Below are positions 2,291-62,527 of a DNA stretch of 64,000 bases, in pieces. The stretch is taken from IMG/VR virus record IMGVR_UViG_2595698649_000001, positions 83,285 through 147,284 of that record. One strand, given 5' to 3'. Origin of the DNA: a virus (lineage: Duplodnaviria; Caudoviricetes). The stretch's first letter is position 1; each line of letters begins with the position of its first letter. Under the pieces are notes generated by a model. It was not told the origin of the DNA. It was given only the letters and a program-made list of their open reading frames with translations, and made no database searches. The translations under genes and the position numbers were made by a program.

Positions 2291-2835
2291 ATGGAAAAAC
2301 TAATAACTAAAATTGAAGACATAAAAGTTAATTTATGTGAAGATGATATTTTAAATTTTTTACAAATACAGAAACGCTGGCCAATACAGTATTCTACTTC
2401 ACAACCTACAGTACAAATCATAAATGAACTAGGTAATTTCTACAACGATTTTTTTGAAAATACTGTAGATGGAATATTCTTAAATTATGATAAGTGGTTA
2501 TCTTTATACAACTTAGGATTTACTTCTATTATATCAAATGTTTTAGATTTATCAAAAGAACTAAGAACATTAGAGAAATTAATAATAGAAGAAATAGGTG
2601 TAAAAGTTTGTGGTAATTTTTACTTTAGTAAACCTGGAAGAAAAGAAAGTTTTGATAAACATACCCATAGTTATGATGTTATAGTAAAACAAATATATGG
2701 CAAGTCAAAATGGATTTTAAACAACCAAGAAATAGACCTATGTCCTAATCAAGTATTATATGTACCTAAAAATACTGAACACGCTGTTATTGAAAAAACA
2801 GAAAAAAATTATCATTAACCTTAAATTTAGCATGA
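2291..2835 (+). CDS. JmjC/cupin-4 (YcfD-like) oxygenase; apparent 1-nt deletion in A-run 2802-2808
   Basis: GNFYFS..FDKHTHSYDVIVKQIYGKSKW..LYVPKNTEHAV; adding one A gives KKLSLTLNLA* ending in an ATGA overlap with the next gene. Confidence 0.7.
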
Positions 2836-3974
2836 AGAATAAACCTATAGACCCTTTATTAGAAAAACAATGGGAGACCTTTCAACAAGAAAATCCTACA
2901 CCTTACGAACATATAGATACAAACGAACTTAAAGAGCGTTTAATTACTGAACTAGGTTATGTATCTGGTATGACAGTAGAAGAATATACATTATATCAAA
3001 AATGGTGTGAAGTTAAAAACAAGTATCCTGCTCAGACAGTAAACACTTTATTTGGCGAAGAAAGTCAATTAGTAGATTTATCAAAAGATAAACTATTATC
3101 TCATGTAAAGAACAATATATGGTCACCTCAGGATCCTATGGATTTTGAGAAGTTACAACCAGAACTAATCTATACAAAAGATAGTCCAGAATTACCACAA
3201 TTGTGGAACGCAATAAGAACATTTGCCTCTACAATGAAAAACAATAACAATATAGGTCGTAATCTAAACTTTATAGTAAGAGATAAACCAACAAAGAAAT
3301 ATCTAGGTGTCATTTGTATATCAAGTGACTTTTTAGATTTAACACCTAGAGATAATTACATAGGTTGGGATAGAGTTAGAAAAACACAAAAGATGATTAA
3401 TCATACGGCGATAGGTAGTACGATTGTGCCACTACAACCACTAGGTTATAATTACACAGGTGGTAAGTTACTTGCGTTGATGTGTTTATCAGATAAAGTA
3501 CAAGAGACATGGAAAAAAGAATATGGCGATACAATGGTTGGTGTTACAACTACAAGTTTATATGGTAGTTTTAGTCAATATCAGAATTTGAAACACTGGA
3601 AGAAAAGAGGTCATAGTGCAGGTAGTGTATCATACGAAGCAACGAAACCTACTATTCAGATGTTAAGAAAGTGGATTATGGAAAATCACACTAGAAAATA
3701 CTTTGAATGGTATAGTGCTACAAAACCTACAGGTCAACCATATAAGAGAGACCACAGAAATAGAAGTCATACATTTGCATATAGTAAACTAGGTATACCA
3801 AAAGAGTTAACAAAGTCAGACCACAGTAGAGGTATCTATTTTTCCGCTAGAAAGCGTATTAAATCATTGATTGACCAAACAAGGACAAACATGGAGACGC
3901 TTTACTATGATGACTTGATACATTTAACATGGGAAGAAACCAAAGAAAAGTATCTAAAACAGGTAGGAAGATAA
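2832..3974 (+). CDS. DruA/DUF4338-like protein, paralog 1
   Basis: GRNLNFIV, PLGYNYTGGKLLAL, TTTSLYG..SQY motifs shared with 16251..17375; likely ATG at 2832. Confidence 0.7.
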   Translation: MKNKPIDPLLEKQWETFQQENPTPYEHIDTNELKERLITELGYVSGMTVEEYTLYQKWCEVKNKYPAQTVNTLFGEESQLVDLSKDKLLSHVKNNIWSPQDPMDFEKLQPELIYTKDSPELPQLWNAIRTFASTMKNNNNIGRNLNFIVRDKPTKKYLGVICISSDFLDLTPRDNYIGWDRVRKTQKMINHTAIGSTIVPLQPLGYNYTGGKLLALMCLSDKVQETWKKEYGDTMVGVTTTSLYGSFSQYQNLKHWKKRGHSAGSVSYEATKPTIQMLRKWIMENHTRKYFEWYSATKPTGQPYKRDHRNRSHTFAYSKLGIPKELTKSDHSRGIYFSARKRIKSLIDQTRTNMETLYYDDLIHLTWEETKEKYLKQVGR

Positions 3975-6483: not shown

Positions 6484-6582
6484 TGCGACATGTTGACACA
6501 GCAATTAATTTGGAAAGCGTTGAAATATAAAGGTTTTTTATTTGAAATAACGCTTGACTTTAACAATAAAGTGTGATAGGAT
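6484..6582 (+). promoter_or_regulatory. compound promoter: TGCGACA box, degenerate IHF-like site, sigma70 promoter
   Basis: TGCGACATGTTGACACA 6484-6500; GTTGAAATATAAAGG; TTGACT 6554 N17 TAGGAT 6577. Confidence 0.7.
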
Positions 6583-6620
6583 ATAGTTATATTATGAAAA
6601 AAAGTGAAAGGACTACAATT

Positions 6621-7793
6621 ATGTTAAACGAGAAACAAAAAAAGTTTGTTGACCTTGCTGTAAAAGAACTTGGTACTGATACAGTAACAAGAAAGCAAGT
6701 ACAAGAACTTGAAACAAAATTTAACCTTACTGGTAACAGTTGGTTAGTAAATTCAGGAGATTACAAAGTGGGCAGAGGCGTATATAAATTACCTACTGAC
6801 GGTGTTGTAAACCCTAGTAAGAATATCAAACAGAAATTGCCTAAGACTAAAGCAGTTGCTGAGACAGTTACTTTAAAAGAGACTGCTCAAAATACTGAGA
6901 GTTTAGTTCCTAATAAAGAGGCAACTTTCGTATCATTTGGTAATTACAAAGATATTAAGAATATTGTAAAATCTAAAATATTCTATCCTACATTTATTAC
7001 AGGTCTTTCTGGTAACGGTAAGACTTTAGGTGTTACTCAAGCGTGTGCTGAGTTAAAAAGAGAATTAATTAGAGTTAACATAACAGTTGAAACGGACGAA
7101 GATGATTTACTTGGTGGTTTCAGACTAGTTGACGGTGCTACAGTATGGCATGACGGTCCTGTTGTTGACGCTATGAAGCGTGGTGCTCTTCTATTGTTAG
7201 ATGAGATTGACCTTGCTTCAAACAAAATTATGTGTTTGCAACCTATCTTAGAAGGTAACGGAGTGTTCCTTAAAAAGATTGGTAAATTTGTTGAACCTGC
7301 TGAAGGTTTCAACATTGTTGCTACTGCCAATACTAAAGGTAAAGGTAGTGAAGACGGAAGATTTATTGGTACTAACATACTCAATGAAGCTTTCTTAGAA
7401 AGATTTCCTGTTACTTTTGAACAAGAGTATCCTCCTGTAAAAGTAGAACAGAAAATTTTAGATAATGTTATGTCCGCTTATGCTTTAAAGGATCCTAAGT
7501 TTACTGAGAACCTTGTTAAATGGGCAGATGTTATTAGAAAAACTTTTTATGATGGCGGTGTTGATGAGATTATTGCTACTAGAAGACTAGTGCATATCAT
7601 TAATGCTTTTGCTATCTTTAAGAATAAACTTAAAGCTGTTCAAGTTTGTGTAAACAGATTTGATGACGATACTAAAAACAGTTTCTTAGATTTATATTCT
7701 AAAGTTGACGCTGGTGTTAACATGGAAGATATATCTGGAAATGGGAATGATGTTGACCCAATAAACATGGAAGAGGAAACTCCAAGTGTTTAA
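6621..7793 (+). CDS. cobS: CobS-like MoxR-family AAA+ ATPase
   Basis: GLSGNGKT Walker A, LLLDEIDL Walker B, NEAFLERF. Confidence 0.9.
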   Translation: MLNEKQKKFVDLAVKELGTDTVTRKQVQELETKFNLTGNSWLVNSGDYKVGRGVYKLPTDGVVNPSKNIKQKLPKTKAVAETVTLKETAQNTESLVPNKEATFVSFGNYKDIKNIVKSKIFYPTFITGLSGNGKTLGVTQACAELKRELIRVNITVETDEDDLLGGFRLVDGATVWHDGPVVDAMKRGALLLLDEIDLASNKIMCLQPILEGNGVFLKKIGKFVEPAEGFNIVATANTKGKGSEDGRFIGTNILNEAFLERFPVTFEQEYPPVKVEQKILDNVMSAYALKDPKFTENLVKWADVIRKTFYDGGVDEIIATRRLVHIINAFAIFKNKLKAVQVCVNRFDDDTKNSFLDLYSKVDAGVNMEDISGNGNDVDPINMEEETPSV

Positions 7794-7820: not shown

Positions 7821-7846
7821 ATCCGTGGGCAGCAATGTCCACGGAT
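7821..7846 (+). other. 11-bp hairpin with GCAA tetraloop upstream of tRNA (terminator or processing signal)
   Basis: ATCCGTGGGCA-GCAA-TGTCCACGGAT. Confidence 0.6.
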
Positions 7847-7855
7847 TTAAAACAA

Positions 7856-7929
7856 GCGGGTGTGGTATAGAAGTATTACGCCAGTTTACCAAACTGGAAA
7901 TGCAGGAGCGTTACCTGCCATCCGCTCCA
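7856..7929 (+). tRNA. tRNA-Gly (anticodon ACC)
   Basis: Acceptor GCGGGTG/CATCCGC, U73, encoded CCA; anticodon stem CCAGT/ACTGG with loop TTACCAA; T-stem GCAGG/CCTGC. Confidence 0.9.
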
Positions 7930-7943
7930 ATAAAGGGTACATT

Positions 7944-8147
7944 ATGTCAATAACTGTTGTAGTAAAAAACAATAATGTTGAAAAAGCAATCAGACAGCTT
8001 AAGAAAAAACTTATGAGAGAAGGTGTAGTGAAAGAGTTGAAGACAAGACAATACTATGAAAAACCATCAGAAAAAAAACTCAGATTAAAAAAGGAAAACA
8101 TTAAGCGTGTCCTGAAAAACAAAAAACTAAGGGAAAGGGAACAATAA
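7944..8147 (+). CDS. rpsU: ribosomal protein bS21
   Basis: VVVKNNNVEKAIRQLKKKLMREG..RQYYEKPSEKK. Confidence 0.93.
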   Translation: MSITVVVKNNNVEKAIRQLKKKLMREGVVKELKTRQYYEKPSEKKLRLKKENIKRVLKNKKLREREQ

Positions 8148-16254: not shown

Positions 16255-17375
16255 TATTAAATAACCAAGACGCTACATGGGCAATGAATTACTTTATAGA
16301 ATACTTTGGTCAATATGAAAGAATAGACCAATATCTTAAAGAACAAAAATTAGAACAAGTTAAAAATTTTCCATTTCAATTACCTGGCATGGCAGACGAA
16401 GATGAGTTTTTTGCTAACTTTGAAATATCTCCTGAAGATATGAAATTTAGCGTGACTATACCTAATGGTCAAATATTTGATAGAATGTTAAACAAAACAT
16501 CTAGTCATACTAACATGTCAAGTATACCTGGTAAGTCAATTAGATTGTTAGTTACAGAAACAACTACAAATACTATTGTAGGTTTTATTAGACTTGGTAG
16601 TCCTGTGATTAATAGTAAACCACGAAATGTTTATCTTGGTAGACCTTTACAAACTACAGACATGGAAGAAATGGGTAGATTTAACAATAGTGCCATTATG
16701 GGATTTGTAATTGTACCTACACAACCATTTGGTTATAATTATCTTGGTGGTAAACTATTAGCGGCGATATGCTGTAGTCATCATGTGAGAGATATACTAA
16801 ATAAGAAATATAATACTAACATATGTTTATTTGAAACAACAAGTTTATATGGTAGTAGTAAATCATCAAGTCAGTATGATGGTATGAAACCTTATTTAAG
16901 ATTTAAAGGTTTGACAGATAGTCACTTCTTGCCATTATTACATGGCGAAGCATTTAAGAAAATGAATGCCTGGTTTACAGAAAGAAACGGAGAACCTTTA
17001 GTTGACGCTGACGCAAGTAGTAGAAAACTAAAAATACAAACAAAGATGGTATCTATAATCAAGGAATCCTTGAAACAATATGACGCCAATCTATATGATA
17101 AGTTTAGTAAGTTTGTAAATAAAACTAGAGACTTAACTGAACAGAAAAGATTTTACATGTCTGATTACGGATATGAAAATGTGCCACAATATCTTAAACG
17201 TGAGACAGATGAATTAAAACGTGGTATACACTACGATAAGTTTACATTAGAGAATACAATCAAATGGTGGCAAAAACTTGCTACTAAACGATTTAATAAA
17301 CTTAAACAAAACAATAATATAAGAAATGATTTAGAGATATGGCACGAAGACGCCAATATACAAATTATAAGATAA
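16251..17375 (+). CDS. DruA/DUF4338-like protein, paralog 2
   Basis: PGKSIRLLV, QPFGYNYLGGKLLA, FETTSLYG..SQYDG. Confidence 0.7.
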   Translation: MILNNQDATWAMNYFIEYFGQYERIDQYLKEQKLEQVKNFPFQLPGMADEDEFFANFEISPEDMKFSVTIPNGQIFDRMLNKTSSHTNMSSIPGKSIRLLVTETTTNTIVGFIRLGSPVINSKPRNVYLGRPLQTTDMEEMGRFNNSAIMGFVIVPTQPFGYNYLGGKLLAAICCSHHVRDILNKKYNTNICLFETTSLYGSSKSSSQYDGMKPYLRFKGLTDSHFLPLLHGEAFKKMNAWFTERNGEPLVDADASSRKLKIQTKMVSIIKESLKQYDANLYDKFSKFVNKTRDLTEQKRFYMSDYGYENVPQYLKRETDELKRGIHYDKFTLENTIKWWQKLATKRFNKLKQNNNIRNDLEIWHEDANIQIIR

Positions 17376-45609: not shown

Positions 45610-47138
45610 TTATATTAGGATTATATTTTGGTCATAATGCTGCTGCCTGTGTACTTAAAGATGGCGAAGTATTAATCAATTGGGAACTAGAAAGATTTAC
45701 GAGAATAAAACATGACTTTGGTTTTAGTCAGGAGTTTATTGATAAGACATTAGAACATTGTGGTTTAACAATGAATGATGTTGACCATATTGCATGTAAT
45801 AATCCAGGCACAATTACTAGATGGATTGAACAACACATGCCAGAAAGAAAATTAAATTTTAAAGTACCTAGTGCAAAGACTTTAGAATATAAAAAGTTTG
45901 ATAAAGGTTACATTGTTAATCATCATTTAGCACACGCAGCTTCAACATACTATACAAGTCCTTTTGATACTGCCACAATCTTTACATGGGACGGTGGTGG
46001 TGATAGTGAGAACTCTAGTGTATCACAAGGTGTTGGTAATAAGATAGAACAATATAAACCTGACGCAAGAAAGAACTTAGCGGCATACTGGTCAAGTATT
46101 ACAATCAATAATTATAGAATGAAAAGAGTACATGAATGGGACCCAGGTTCTGGTGCAGGTAAAGTTATGGGTCTTGCAAGTTATGGTAATGCTAATGAAG
46201 ATTTGATAAGAACGATAGAGAGAACATTATCAGAGGCACCAAGACATGAATATTATGATCCACGAGCCAGAGCATATAACAATTGCGAAGACTTATCAGA
46301 TACAAAAACATCTAATAGTCAAAATGTGGCAGCAAGTTTACAAAGTCTTACTACACGAACACTACTAACTGAAATAGATGATATTTACACAGGTAATCAA
46401 AACTTATGTTATGCAGGTGGACTTGCGTTAAATTGTATTGCAAATAGAGAGATTATCAAACAGACAAAGTTTGAAAAATTGCATGTTCCTCCGTTTCCTA
46501 ACGACACAGGATTAGCGATAGGGTGTGCTTTGTATATCTGGCACCATGTGTTAGATAACCCTAAGAAAACATCATATTTTAGTCCTTATACAGGACCAGA
46601 TTATAATGTAGGACAACCTGACATTGAAAGAGTTGGTAACCTACTTGCAGATAATAAAGTTATATGTTACTATGAAGGTCGTAGTGAGAGTGGACCTAGA
46701 GCATTAGGACATAGAAGTATTTTATGTAATCCAGGTATTGATGGCATAAGAGATAGATTAAACTACAAAGTAAAAATGAGAGAATGGTACAGACCATATG
46801 CACCTATTATACCTGAAGAAAATGCCAAAGAAATGTTATTAGATTATAACGAATGGTCACCTTATATGCAAACAAGTGCCATAGTTAAACATGAGTATGA
46901 TGAGGCATTATCAGGCGTTACACAAGTTGATGGTAGTACAAGAGCACAAATTTTAAAACACGACCATAATGAAACACTATATAATATTATACAACAAAGT
47001 AAATTGCCTGCTTTGTTGAATACAAGTTTTAACTACCAAGAACCTATAGTTGAAACACCTGAACAGGCGAAGGCAACATTTGATAGAATGAAAGATGTTG
47101 ATGTATTAGTAATTGGAGATAAAATATATGAAAGATAG
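45606..47138 (+). CDS. NodU/CmcH-family O-carbamoyltransferase
   Basis: GHNAA, ERFTRIKH, HHLAHA, DGGGD, GKVMGLA, GPRALGHRS, NTSFN. Confidence 0.93.
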   Translation: MIILGLYFGHNAAACVLKDGEVLINWELERFTRIKHDFGFSQEFIDKTLEHCGLTMNDVDHIACNNPGTITRWIEQHMPERKLNFKVPSAKTLEYKKFDKGYIVNHHLAHAASTYYTSPFDTATIFTWDGGGDSENSSVSQGVGNKIEQYKPDARKNLAAYWSSITINNYRMKRVHEWDPGSGAGKVMGLASYGNANEDLIRTIERTLSEAPRHEYYDPRARAYNNCEDLSDTKTSNSQNVAASLQSLTTRTLLTEIDDIYTGNQNLCYAGGLALNCIANREIIKQTKFEKLHVPPFPNDTGLAIGCALYIWHHVLDNPKKTSYFSPYTGPDYNVGQPDIERVGNLLADNKVICYYEGRSESGPRALGHRSILCNPGIDGIRDRLNYKVKMREWYRPYAPIIPEENAKEMLLDYNEWSPYMQTSAIVKHEYDEALSGVTQVDGSTRAQILKHDHNETLYNIIQQSKLPALLNTSFNYQEPIVETPEQAKATFDRMKDVDVLVIGDKIYER

Positions 47139-54568: not shown

Positions 54569-55030
54569 ATGACAGCGAAAATTTTATCGTTTCCAGAAGG
54601 AAAACATATACCTAATCTGACCAGAGAACAGAAAAAACCTGTAGAAGAAAAGATAGCGGAAGAACAAACAAAGAAATACGCTAATGCAGTTGCTGATGAT
54701 ATGGTCATTGGAATGTTGTCACAGTTACAACAAGAGGGTATGAACATTGGTTTACGAGATCCAAAGTTAAGTAATAAAACTTTCTTAGATTTAGGTATCT
54801 TTATGGAGGCATTAAAAGGTTTATTGTATAGAGAACTAAATTTAGAACACCCTTTCCATGAGATAACTGATAATCTTATGTTTAAACAGAAAGATGAAAA
54901 ATCAGGTAGGACATTTTCAGTAATTGATTATGAAGGCAAAAGAATTTGTGACAAAAATGATGAAGACGAAATTGAATTTGAAGGAGAAAATTTAGATGAT
55001 ACTGATAGACTACAGCCAGATAGCGATTAG
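54569..55030 (+). CDS. hypothetical protein
   Basis: ORF upstream of rnh; AKILSFP N-terminus. Confidence 0.65.
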   Translation: MTAKILSFPEGKHIPNLTREQKKPVEEKIAEEQTKKYANAVADDMVIGMLSQLQQEGMNIGLRDPKLSNKTFLDLGIFMEALKGLLYRELNLEHPFHEITDNLMFKQKDEKSGRTFSVIDYEGKRICDKNDEDEIEFEGENLDDTDRLQPDSD

Positions 55031-55883
55031 TAATATCGCTGTACAATTGGCAATGAGTAAAGACAAGATGACCTTGTCTATACCAATTGTAAGACATATG
55101 ATACTAAACTCTATTAGAGGATTAGTACACAGATTTAAACAAGACTATCCAGGTGATGTTGTCATTGCAGTTGACGGACCGGCACCTTGGCGTAGAGATA
55201 TATTTCCACACTACAAAGCAAAACGAAGGGAAGGGCGAGACGAATCCAAAACTGATTGGGAAAGTGTATTTGGTTTAATACACATAATCAAAGAAGAAAT
55301 ACGAGACAACTTCCATTATAAAGTTGTACAATTAGATAATGTTGAAGCAGATGATATTATTGCTGTACTATGTAAAAAAGAACAGACAGGTGTAAACATT
55401 GCTAAAAACGAAAAGATTTTAATTATATCAGGTGACAAAGACTTTCAACAACTTCAAAAGTATCCAAATGTATCACAGTATGCACCTATACAAAAGAAGA
55501 TGATAGAAACACAAAATCCACAAGAGTATATCTTTGAGCATATAATGAGAGGTGATACCTCTGATGGCATACCTAACTTCTTGTCACCAGACGATACCTT
55601 TGTAAATAAGATTAAACAAAAACCTATACAAAAGAAAAAATTATCATATTGGATTGACACTTTAATGAAAGGTGAGGATCCTAAGACTTTCTGTAATGAA
55701 TATCACTATAGAAACTACCAAAGAAACCAAAGACTAATTGACTTTGACTATATTCCAGACGATATGGAAGAAGACATATATAATACATACAAAAACATTA
55801 AGGTACAATCTAAACAAAAGATATTACCTTATTTAATTAATAACGATTTGAAAGAATTGATTGGCAAAATAGAGGAGTTTTAA
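54996..55883 (+). CDS. rnh: T4-type RNase H (5'-3' exonuclease)
   Basis: WRRDIFPHYKAKR, EADDII, SGDKDFQQL, GDTSDGIPN. Confidence 0.95.
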   Translation: MILIDYSQIAISNIAVQLAMSKDKMTLSIPIVRHMILNSIRGLVHRFKQDYPGDVVIAVDGPAPWRRDIFPHYKAKRREGRDESKTDWESVFGLIHIIKEEIRDNFHYKVVQLDNVEADDIIAVLCKKEQTGVNIAKNEKILIISGDKDFQQLQKYPNVSQYAPIQKKMIETQNPQEYIFEHIMRGDTSDGIPNFLSPDDTFVNKIKQKPIQKKKLSYWIDTLMKGEDPKTFCNEYHYRNYQRNQRLIDFDYIPDDMEEDIYNTYKNIKVQSKQKILPYLINNDLKELIGKIEEF

Positions 55884-61471: not shown

Positions 61472-61897
61472 AACTTTTTTAAGAGGAATACTAGGTATTG
61501 GATTGATTGTATTATTCTTTTTTTATTATCTTTTGGATTAAACAAAGCACAAGCAGACGAGAAACCTTATTTTTTACCAGGTACATTATACCCAATACAA
61601 GTGCCAATGATGTGTGGCGAAAGCACAACAGTATTGACACAAATTGTAAATGGGTTTAAGATGAAAAGTTTGGCAGCAGGACAAGTAAAATATGCTGGAG
61701 ACTTAGATGGTGATAGTATTGGTGTTATATCATTTTGGATACACCCTACTTTAGAGTATGGTAGTATGTTAATGACAATAAAAGAAGGCAATTTGACATG
61801 TTTATTAGGTTATGGTGTGGACTGGCAATGGGACACAGACTTAATGATAGATGTCGTAAACGAAGTTATCAATGAAGATGAGACAAGTACGCAATAG
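61455..61897 (+). CDS. exported hypothetical protein; apparent frameshift in T-run 61518-61524
   Basis: MLKQIK..hydrophobic..AQA-DE signal joins ORF 61601..61897 if one T is added. Confidence 0.55.
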
Positions 61898-62128
61898 GGA
61901 CTTGGGTGCAATACCCAACACCTCCACCAAAACCACTTCTATGAAGCATGGTGGTACCACAGATGAAGTGGTTTTGATGGGGGTGATATAGGTTTGACCG
62001 TTGTGAGAAAGTTCATTGGAGATAATTCACTGGCGAGTGTAAACGTGACAAATGCAAACTTTAACGAGTATGCTTTAGCAGCCTAGTGTTGCTTAGGGTT
62101 TGCCTGTACCTCGTAACAGAAACAGGCA
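61870..62128 (+). ncRNA. ssrA: circularly permuted (two-piece) tmRNA, tag (A)ANFNEYALAA
   Basis: T-arm and CACCTCC-ACCA at 61902-61929, intervening hairpin, GGGGGTG at 61979 giving G3.U70, tag ORF 62054-62086. Confidence 0.92.
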
Positions 62129-62152
62129 CTATTAACAAGTGATAAGGAGATT

Positions 62153-62527
62153 ATGACAAAACAAAGTGAACAATTTTACGAGCTTCTGGATAAGATGAGA
62201 CAAGTACATGACAATAAGAGGCATGATTATGCTTCTGTTGATGATGTATTCGCAAACTTTAGAACAAGTGAAATGGCAGGTATTCCTGCATGGAAAGGCG
62301 TTGCATTGCGAATAAGCGATAAGTTTAGTCGTTTAATGTCTTTCTGTAAACAAGGTGAATTAAAAGTACAAGACGAAAGTATTGGCGACACCTTAATAGA
62401 TATGGCAAACTATGCTATCATATGCCACATTTTATTTTATGAAATGAGAAACAAACAAATGAACGCACATAAAGACGATATAACAGAAAAGTTTTTAAAT
62501 GCACAAGGAGATAATAATGACAGATGA
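62153..62527 (+). CDS. DUF1599 / nucleotide-modification-associated domain protein
   Basis: KRHDYA..NF..RISDKFSRL..ESIGDTLIDMANYAII. Confidence 0.75.
   Translation: MTKQSEQFYELLDKMRQVHDNKRHDYASVDDVFANFRTSEMAGIPAWKGVALRISDKFSRLMSFCKQGELKVQDESIGDTLIDMANYAIICHILFYEMRNKQMNAHKDDITEKFLNAQGDNNDR

Follow-up and report, generated by a model that had tools for sequence, protein, structure and literature searches.

Accessory elongator tRNAs that fit the codon use of the phage are a familiar component of T4-like genomes, and T4 itself has a tRNA-Gly(UCC). The gene described here, at positions 7856–7929 of a 64,000-nucleotide stretch (the window) that forms the last 64 kb of the linear, 147,284-base virus record IMGVR_UViG_2595698649_000001 (33.4% GC, rated complete by CheckV), is likewise an accessory tRNA in a T4-like genome that fits phage codon use. 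Unlike the described phage elongator tRNAs, it has the anticodon ACC, not UCC or GCC, and an elbow built on A18/G55 with A54/U58. To our knowledge, the textbook rule is that glycine is never read by a tRNA with A34 or I34; a second textbook rule holds that the elbow is locked by G18-pseudouridine 55 and T54-A58. In the Methylophilales phage Melnitz, the corresponding position immediately ahead of the S21 gene rpsU is taken by a different tRNA, tRNA-Arg(TCT), according to PMC9004378.

The anticodon has precedents among laboratory mutants. Engineered tRNA-Gly(ACC) variants (Boren et al. 1993; Saint-Leger et al. 2016; an orthogonal tRNA-ACC in E. coli, 2024) are presented in the accessible text of PMC4928997 and PMC11066159 as chargeable, active in elongation and GGU-preferring, with no inosine in E. 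coli; the window tRNA, in contrast, is natural, conserved, and diversified, with at least 13 distinct ACC sequences in the D-arm scan described below. For the elbow, G55 itself is known from staphylococci. The non-proteogenic tRNA-Gly of these bacteria (NP1-3; S. epidermidis Ia and Ib) share G55, the lack of pseudouridine 55, and A51-U63 with the window tRNA, but PMC7826273 describes them as UCC tRNAs of one Gram-positive lineage that bind EF-Tu and the ribosome poorly and serve Fem transferases. The weak staphylococcal T stem is made of A49-U65, U50-A64, and A51-U63 (PMC7826273), whereas pairs 49-65 and 50-64 are G-C and C-G in the window tRNA. Membership in this class is not indicated: only G55 and A51-U63 are common to both, the anticodon is ACC, and no Fem-like name was assigned among 151 phage ORFs.

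A closer likeness is found in the A18/G55 tRNAs of phages and of tRNA arrays, which have the same G55 and A18, keep G19-C56, and encode CCA. An identical 17-nt T arm (loop AGCGUUA) recurs there in tRNAs for Met or Ile (CAU), Ile, Val, Pro, Phe, and Asn; the window tRNA differs from the arrays in being a lone tRNA of a T4-like phage, with the elbow joined to an A34 anticodon. Outside tRNA, a G at the second position of the T-loop motif is a normal variant, often accompanied by an intercalating adenine. The consensus of this motif in rRNA and RNase P RNA is reportedly U-(U/G)-N-R-A, as Nagaswamy and Fox (2002) and Krasilnikov and Mondragon (2003) are said to have described. A variant with an intercalating adenine would fit A18/G55, whereas the swap of A and U between the first and fifth positions, present in the window tRNA, is not part of that consensus; we know of no structure of such a tRNA elbow. 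In the literature outside subscription journals, we found no description of an A18/G55 tRNA elbow, of an A54/U58 T loop, of tRNA arrays with G55, or of a phage tRNA-Gly with ACC, the word search for the last being unable to match the bracketed form 'Gly(ACC)'. The locus is a phage accessory tRNA of a known sort, whose anticodon and elbow both lie outside the textbook set.

A glycine tRNA gene with anticodon ACC and its family

We consider it probable, at about 0.68, that positions 7856–7929 encode a working accessory tRNA-Gly of a T4-like phage of small marine alphaproteobacteria, whose expression, charging, and decoding we infer. On the best reading, it would decode GGU through a probably unmodified A34 and would owe its alternative elbow to inheritance.

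The gene is called as tRNA-Gly(acc) on the plus strand by ARAGORN, the sole tRNA called in the window, and Rfam model RF00005 scores 49.5 bits over 7856–7926, its gathering cutoff being 29 (whole-window E 1.4e-7); this is the only tRNA match across the whole 147,284-bp phage record. It folds into a cloverleaf with stems of 7, 3–4, 5, and 5 bp and a 7-nt anticodon loop. The acceptor contains G1-C72, C2-G71, G3-C70, and one G-U pair, its 5' strand is followed by U8 and G9, G26 follows the D arm, and the variable loop has four bases, AAAU. The established glycine identity set (G1-C72, C2-G71, G3-C70, U73, C35, and C36) is complete and is invariant in 12 aligned family members. The anticodon, by comparison, is none of those usual for bacterial glycine (GCC, UCC, CCC). 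In the D loop, where G-G is canonical, A 7872 stands in the place of G18 and G 7873 in that of G19; the T loop runs A54 (7907), G55 (7908), C56 (7909), G57 (7910), and U58 (7911), then U59 and A60. Only G19 and C56 are kept of the canonical elbow (G18, G19, U54, U55, C56, A58). An earlier note made from the sequence had proposed a real tRNA-Gly with intact identity elements, ACC at 7888–7890, a T loop AGCGTTA, and a D loop with AG for GG; the first two points hold, and all letters and coordinates it reported are right.

The letter at 7888, which that note had singled out for checking, is A in one DNA-run contig and in the contigs of three RNA libraries from three studies, with no differences anywhere in the tRNA; being assembled contigs, these confirm the DNA letter and are uninformative on RNA ends, strand, rare variants, transcription, and partial editing. 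Strain-variant contigs from two runs differ at 7744, 7758, 7940, 8024, 8030, 8032, 8127, and 8148, and never within 7856–7929. In one RNA run, two contigs meet at 7935–7937, near the 3' end of the tRNA, a single-run observation to which we give no weight. The identical tRNA occurs on 10 independent viral contigs, and a variant with two compensatory acceptor pairs (contig L064) keeps ACC.

A search of viral sequences, also suggested by the earlier note, revealed a conserved family. A pattern fixing UACCAA and the T loop with two closing pairs, the T stem being otherwise free, retrieved 68 viral loci, of which 49 are cloverleaf-consistent and 12 distinct (the window tRNA and 11 relatives). All 240 stem cells of these 12 sequences are paired, and 10 of the 20 stem pairs have changed on both sides. 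The covariation score of the alignment was reached by none of 500 shuffles, and sliding the partner columns by one to three positions lowers pairing to 31–59%. Because the stems pair fully and with compensatory changes, the tRNA is under purifying selection and is not a relic.

As the first pattern fixed the anticodon, the scan was repeated on the D arm alone, yielding at least 119 loci and at least 80 cloverleaf-consistent tRNA-Gly. ACC accounts for at least 30 loci and 13 distinct sequences, with T loops AGCGUUA (27 loci), GGCAGUA (2), and UGCGUUA (1); UCC for at least 37 loci and 24 distinct sequences, with T loops UGCAAUA, UGCAUUA, CGCAAUA, GGCAGUA, and UGCGAUA; and GCC for at least 13 loci and 1 distinct sequence, with T loop AGCGUUA. 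Among the matches listed, G55 is present in 80 of 80 family members and the canonical UUC in none. Judged by sequence, the window tRNA belongs to a marine-phage tRNA-Gly family with anticodon ACC, GCC, or UCC, in which one branch reads GGY, mostly with A34 and with a close GCC sister, and a second has UCC. All four stems have diverged in the ACC branch, and UUACCAA is retained; that A34 is kept while the stems diverge suggests that position 34 matters, i.e., for decoding. Among the same matches, the S21 gene adjoins 8 of the 30 ACC loci (7 of them also beside CobS), all of the window's own type, and the remaining 22 ACC loci and all 50 GCC or UCC loci lie in other genomic contexts.

The glycine tRNA is the sole tRNA found in three related records (G006, G008, and G009), and two others, G007 and G010, have two and three tRNAs, respectively. 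Several family members are missed by ARAGORN even though their Rfam scores are 39–51 bits. Record G007 also holds a second tRNA-like gene missed by ARAGORN, at L654:1501-1571 (-), with an Rfam score of 39.3 bits and 2.8 kb from the GCC-type tRNA. A Gly-type tRNA-like gene on viral contig L251, with an AGCGUUA T loop, a short D region, and seemingly a six-base anticodon loop (UACCAA), may be a degenerate or non-decoding relative. By blastn, the 74-nt tRNA has no match in 50,697 GenBank phage records, among which its own record may be absent, and a UCC-type relative searched with its upstream region matched cyanophages through the upstream manA RNA alone, not the tRNA. This manA motif (RF01745, 186.7 bits, L649:1263-1448 (+)) lies ~50 nt upstream of the UCC-type family member, and it is the motif that matches cultured Prochlorococcus and Synechococcus phages.

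Glycine tRNAs with ACC also occur outside this family. A scan for UACCAA with the canonical UUCRA loop gave at least 118 loci, at least 23 of them cloverleaf-consistent and 18 distinct, most with the glycine acceptor GCG...CGC-U. Similarly, a tRNA array of Verrucomicrobiota has another tRNA-Gly(ACC), at L222:7467-7541, with T loop UGCAACU, and a G55 loop with U54 is joined to ACC in 1 cloverleaf-consistent match among 120 loci listed. A34 glycine tRNAs thus recur in phages and mobile tRNA sets. Examples of ACC genes with a fully canonical elbow (UUCRA T loop, GG D loop) can be seen on viral contigs L422, L465, L428, L481, and L439.

The A18/G55 elbow

The 17-nt T arm of the window tRNA has exact matches at 64 loci on viral contigs (ARAGORN was applied to 60 of the 64), of which 49 pass a uniform cloverleaf test with eight anticodons: CAU 22, ACC 11, GAU 10, GAC 2, and UAU, UGG, GAA, and GUU 1 each. 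The 15 that fail lie mostly within coding sequence. In prokaryote genomes, the same 17-mer has at least 120 matches, of which at least 21 pass (GAU 8, UUU 4, CCA 3, UGG 3, UGU 2, GUU 1), and most of the matches listed lie in genes encoding the peptide QERYL. Among the tRNA-shaped genomic loci listed with a title, 12 of 14 are from Verrucomicrobiota. Five genomes of this phylum (G001–G005) have tRNA arrays, in which ARAGORN finds 10, 21, 23, 15, 10, and 16 tRNAs in six regions (L217–L222). The array tRNAs have T loops UGCRANN, AGCGUUA, or CGCGAUA, D loops with A-G-Y in the place of GG, and an encoded CCA; a canonical tRNA-Arg(ACG) adjoining one array has UUCAAGU and GG.

Position 55 was compared in three sets. 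The 92 parsed array tRNAs have G55 in 87, U55 in 4, and A55 in 1; the 104 parsed neighbors of the 17-mer on viral contigs have G55 in 15, U55 in 89, and A55 in none; and the 60 tRNAs parsed from two small alphaproteobacterial genomes have G55 in 2, U55 in 58, and A55 in none. Over the 256 parsed distinct tRNAs, with position 18 assigned to whichever base precedes the final G of the D loop, 138 of the 151 tRNAs with U55 have G18, and the 104 with G55 have A18 in 80 cases and G18 in only 3. A54/U58 was seen 28 times, 27 of them with G55. One and the same D loop in the glycine family serves 54/58 combinations of U-A, C-A, A-U, G-G, or U-U, and for this reason 18/55 is, on the sequences compared, the tight coupling, and 54/58 is looser, departing from U-A most often through the A-U swap. 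The window tRNA has the features of the class (G55 and A18, with G19 and C56 kept) and of its A54/U58 sub-form with T loop AGCGUUA. The A18/G55 elbow, with U54/A58 or A54/U58, is shared by other phage tRNAs, the Verrucomicrobiota arrays, and two chromosomal tRNAs of a small alphaproteobacterial genome. The joint changes at 18, 55, 54, and 58 in these counts support a coherent alternative build, not decay. The compensatory character that the earlier note had ascribed to the elbow is upheld by these counts, but the arrangement is not private to this gene and is common to a large class of tRNAs. A covariation of the Levitt pair 15-48 was considered and rejected, as G-U versus A-C in the 12 aligned sequences gave no clean rule, 38 distinct members having A-C in 27, A-A in 9, and G-U in 2.

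Proxies for the host were sought by searching 401 Alphaproteobacteria with the transfer-messenger RNA (tmRNA) of the phage, which gave weak matches in seven genomes of 1.3–2.0 Mb; two were used. The first, G402 (1.3 Mb, 30% GC), has 32 Rfam tRNA matches, from which 30 distinct tRNAs were recovered. Its tRNA-Gly(GCC) and tRNA-Gly(UCC) have canonical elbows. Its chromosomal tRNA-Val(GAC), from a pair of loci with Phe (L688:1498-1572 (-) / L678:1501-1575 (+)), has the T loop AGCGUAA and A18, and its sole recovered tRNA-Phe(GAA) has UGCGAAU and A18. Because these two tRNAs carry A18/G55, the elbow appears usable in translation, with a free-living-type cell apparently running essential decoding on it. 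Such chromosomal use is lineage-specific, since the second proxy (G043) and five other small genomes are without it: a pattern search of these five found no tRNA with an AGCGUWA loop (two chance matches, not tRNAs), and a BLAST search of other small genomes with the variant tRNA-Val was likewise negative.

The elbow could itself be the adaptation. Lacking U54, U55, and A58, it would escape, or not depend on, TruB, TrmA, m1A58 methylases, and T-loop-cutting toxins or nucleases, an explanation that can coexist with a decoding role and that we regard as possible, if doubtful. Pseudouridine 55 is chemically impossible on G55, and T-loop-cutting toxins exist. Along the same lines, G55 is concentrated in phage tRNAs and mobile-type arrays (87/92 array tRNAs against 2/60 in the two alphaproteobacterial genomes) and is universal in the listed matches of the phage tRNA-Gly family (80/80). 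However, other phage clusters mix 15 G55 with 89 U55 tRNAs, so those phages do not convert their whole tRNA set, and the Val and Phe tRNAs show the same elbow on the chromosome of G402, a free-living-type genome. Moreover, no nuclease or partner protein was named by PHROGs among 151 ORFs at E 1e-12, a scan that left out 16 large structural-type ORFs, one further ORF, and S21, and in which many ORFs match no named family; Pfam alone covered another six ORFs of the window. We keep to an inherited elbow that permits ordinary decoding as the preferred reading.

Decoding of GGU and competing roles

The codon use of the phage fits a GGU decoder. Across the phage genome, 151 long ORFs contain 2953 glycine codons, and 2156 of these (73%) are GGT, against 11% GGC, 15% GGA, and 2% GGG; the other four-codon boxes of the phage favor A-ending codons. 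Compared with G402, GGT stands at 49.7 versus 26.6 per 1000 codons and is the second most enriched codon. It is densest in large structural-type ORFs. The highest density is found outside the window, in a 297-residue ORF at genome positions 54918–55811 (+) (L755:6918-7808) with 98 glycines (33%), 63 of them GGT, which probably encodes a structural protein of collagen-like type.

The anticodon tracks codon use over five sister records. Two ACC records have 74% GGT, 11–12% GGA, and a GC content of 32%; one GCC record has 70% GGT, 12% GGA, and 31% GC; and two UCC records have 27–49% GGT, 33% GGA, and 39–40% GC. Such tracking is expected of a decoding tRNA and not of a mere glycine donor. The dominance of GGT and the codon tuning suggested in the earlier note thus both agree with the data, whereas nothing found points to its other proposal, evasion of an anticodon nuclease.

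How A34 would be read depends on its modification. The available text of PMC4928997 reports that a tRNA-Gly with ACC is chargeable and active in elongation, and that ACC is absent from eukaryotic genomes. Similarly, PMC11066159, available in part, states that genomically encoded A34 is nearly always turned into inosine, that E. coli TadA acted on only 3 of the 15 A34 anticodons tried in an orthogonal tRNA, that the ACC variant acquired no inosine and read GGU over GGC at 76:24, and that changes at positions 32, 37, or 38 blocked TadA recognition; it also cites Boren et al. (1993) for strong reading of GGU and weak reading of GGC. If the host TadA nonetheless deaminated A34, the product would be a tRNA-Gly(ICC) reading GGU, GGC, and GGA. 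In addition to the general fate of encoded A34, this is favored by U33-A34-C35, common to the window tRNA and the Arg loop, and by the tRNA-Arg(ACG) of G402, from whose presence we presume a TadA. TadA substrates, however, carry ACG, or rarely AAG, in an Arg2-like loop, and the loop here is UUACCAA against CUACGGA in the tRNA-Arg(ACG) of G402, with positions 32, 36, and 37 all different. The phage has no PF00383-family deaminase that was found, and A, not G, appears at 7888 in the three RNA-library contigs, a weak point given that these are contigs. Inosine 34 is unlikely. Because ACC remained without inosine in E. coli and no such deaminase was found in the phage, A34 most likely stays unmodified.

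A working tRNA with an unmodified A34 could operate as follows. It would be transcribed in the same direction as the S21 gene, with host RNase P trimming the transcript; no CCA addition would be needed because CCA is encoded, and the host GlyRS would charge it because the glycine identity set is intact. At the ribosome, GGU would be read through a full Watson-Crick pair, along with some GGC. The phage tRNA would be a one-codon specialist, with the GCC and UCC tRNAs of the host covering the rest of the glycine box, so that the extra tRNA can specialize; this would explain why A34 is tolerated here and not in cells. In the elbow, A18 with G55 replaces G18 with U55, G19-C56 is kept, and A54 with U58 replaces U54 with A58. 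This build presumably descends from a broader lineage of tRNAs in phages and mobile elements; it appears compatible with ordinary translation and cannot carry T54, pseudouridine 55, or m1A58.

Several points weigh against this proposal. The RNA-library support consists of assembled contigs that may derive from DNA, and the 49.5-bit Rfam score is at the low end of the 49–74 bits of the G402 tRNAs. The T stem looks weak, pair 51-63 being A-U or U-A in 12 of 12 aligned ACC members, and in the staphylococcal G55 non-proteogenic tRNA-Gly, A51-U63 is one of the pairs described as weakening the binding of EF-Tu (PMC7826273). G402 is only a host proxy, selected for its size, its GC content, and a weak match to the phage tmRNA, and the second proxy, G043 (1.4 Mb, 32% GC, 31 distinct tRNAs), is fully canonical. 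The most enriched codon relative to G402 is ACA, not GGT, and the codon table of that genome comes from 42 ORFs beside tRNA genes (12,635 codons; GGT 48%, GGA 39%). Finally, the association of anticodon and codon use comprises five records, and in the elbow counts position 18 was called heuristically among related sequences, so that these counts describe a pattern and are not a test of independent events.

The weak T stem bears on a non-ribosomal role, in which the tRNA would serve as a glycine donor or decoy, as in the staphylococcal cell wall or for a tRNA-dependent modifying enzyme. The staphylococcal tRNAs lend this some color, as they have G55 (TGC or TGT), no pseudouridine, and a weak T stem including the A51-U63 pair that the window tRNA also has (PMC7826273, in its available part). 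A glycine donor, however, needs neither A34 nor UUACCAA, which are kept in a diverged clade, and its anticodon would not be expected to follow phage codon use. Nor do the other stem pairs conform, 49-65 and 50-64 being strong in the window tRNA. The neighbors encode a CobS-like ATPase and bS21, the PHROGs scan of the 151 ORFs returned no Mom-like, Fem-like, or other name of a tRNA-using enzyme, and the elbow is found in tRNAs of many specificities, including the sole tRNA-Phe recovered from G402. We consider such a role improbable.

That the gene is a decaying relic, or a mere RNase P processing signal for the S21 message, is very hard to sustain: ARAGORN misses several family members, a tRNAscan-SE table in the accessible part of PMC7029224 gives 0 tRNAs for the cultured pelagimyophage HTVC008M (33.45% GC), and the gene abuts S21 in a slot where a related phage has a different tRNA (PMC9004378, available portion), but its stems pair perfectly with compensatory changes, the tRNA is invariant where its flanks vary, and, among the matches listed, 22 of 30 ACC and all 50 GCC or UCC loci lie away from S21.

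Genomic setting and significance

The coordinates of the gene, its parts, and its immediate neighbors are collected in Table 1.

Table 1. Features of the tRNA-Gly(ACC) locus, in window coordinates
Feature	Position	Strand	Basis
tRNA-Gly(ACC) gene, 71 nt plus encoded CCA	7856–7929	+	ARAGORN, Rfam, family covariation
Acceptor 5' strand GCGGGUG; partner CAUCCGC at 7919–7925	7856–7862	+	sequence; pairs 5–7 change on both sides in the family
D arm GUA(U)-AGAAGUA-(U)UAC; 3-bp stem plus U-U, loop 7869–7875	7865–7879	+	sequence
Anticodon arm CCAGU-UUACCAA-ACUGG	7881–7897	+	sequence; 4 of 5 stem pairs change on both sides in the family
Anticodon ACC (A34 C35 C36)	7888–7890	+	sequence, ARAGORN; same letter at 7888 in contigs of four runs
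T arm GCAGG-AGCGUUA-CCUGC; loop 7907–7913	7902–7918	+	sequence
Discriminator U73 (7926) and encoded CCA (7927–7929)	7926–7929	+	sequence
CobS-like AAA_5 ATPase, upstream gene	6573–7793	+	Pfam PF07728, E 3.8e-17
Hairpin between upstream gene and tRNA, 8-bp stem, 10-nt loop (may be a weak terminator or processing site)	7821–7846	+	sequence
Phage ribosomal protein bS21, downstream gene; start 15 nt past the tRNA CCA	7944–8147	+	Pfam PF01165, E 2e-18

The tRNA starts 62 nt past the stop of the CobS-like gene, and consensus scans, which did not call the hairpin, found no sigma-70-like promoter and no consensus terminator between the two. The nearest named relative of the upstream gene is the AAA gene of Pelagibacter phage Mosig (73% identity over 715 bases), followed by the cobS genes of cyanophages. 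In Mosig, neither ARAGORN nor Rfam (E 0.01) detects a tRNA in the interval from the AAA gene to S21.

By PHROGs and Pfam, the genome is that of a T4-like myovirus, with a gp45 clamp, gp44/62 loader, gp43 polymerase, UvsX, and UvsY, along with a RegA-like repressor, a late sigma factor, baseplate and tail genes, many 2OG-Fe(II) oxygenase paralogues, CobS, PhoH, and ribonucleotide reductase. The use of the tRNA gene as an integration site (attP) was considered and rejected, the genome being T4-like and the 3' half of the gene unlike both glycine tRNAs of G402.

Other features of the genome are recorded here in their own right. A permuted, two-piece tmRNA of alphaproteobacterial type lies at 61819–62177 (+), with the tag ANFNEYALAA (ARAGORN; RF04321, 90.6 bits; RF01849, 83.8 bits), and its matches to the seven small genomes among the 401 Alphaproteobacteria are confined to short stretches. 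Two paralogous ORFs, at 2760–3971 (+) and 16284–17372 (+), both match phrog_19197, and the first also matches the Pfam family DruA (Druantia) at E 6.2e-18; a defence-system domain of this kind is odd in a lytic-type phage. Two genes encode Nol-like carbamoyltransferases (window 45771–47135 (+) and L752:1306-2748 (+)), 2OG-Fe(II) oxygenase families are matched by at least 12 ORFs dispersed along the genome, and endonuclease V-like families by five.

The significance of the locus lies in the combination: both design rules, for A34 and for the elbow, are broken together in one conserved gene of an abundant type of ocean phage that is related to cultured ones. We tentatively extend the reading further, to a claim against which the odds remain, namely that this is the first natural, selected decoder of glycine with an unmodified A34, a one-codon specialist on a second elbow architecture (A18-G55, A54-U58) that needs no T54, pseudouridine 55, or m1A58 and is favored in phages and mobile sets for its independence from, or invisibility to, host enzymes and nucleases that read the T loop. 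If this were true, one-codon specialism would explain why ACC is missing from cells and yet recurs in phages. The sister genes, some with GCC or UCC and some with U54/A58 or A54/U58 in the loop, offer natural controls, making it possible to address why cells avoid A34, and ACC in particular, and how far RNase P, EF-Tu, the ribosome, and modification enzymes truly depend on the elbow.

Such tRNAs are also under-called, as ARAGORN misses several family members and the available part of PMC7029224 tabulates none, by tRNAscan-SE, for a cultured pelagimyophage. The tRNA content of marine phages, and the host predictions based on it, are for this reason probably underestimated. Beyond phage biology, the variant elbow may serve as an orthogonal scaffold for engineered tRNAs.

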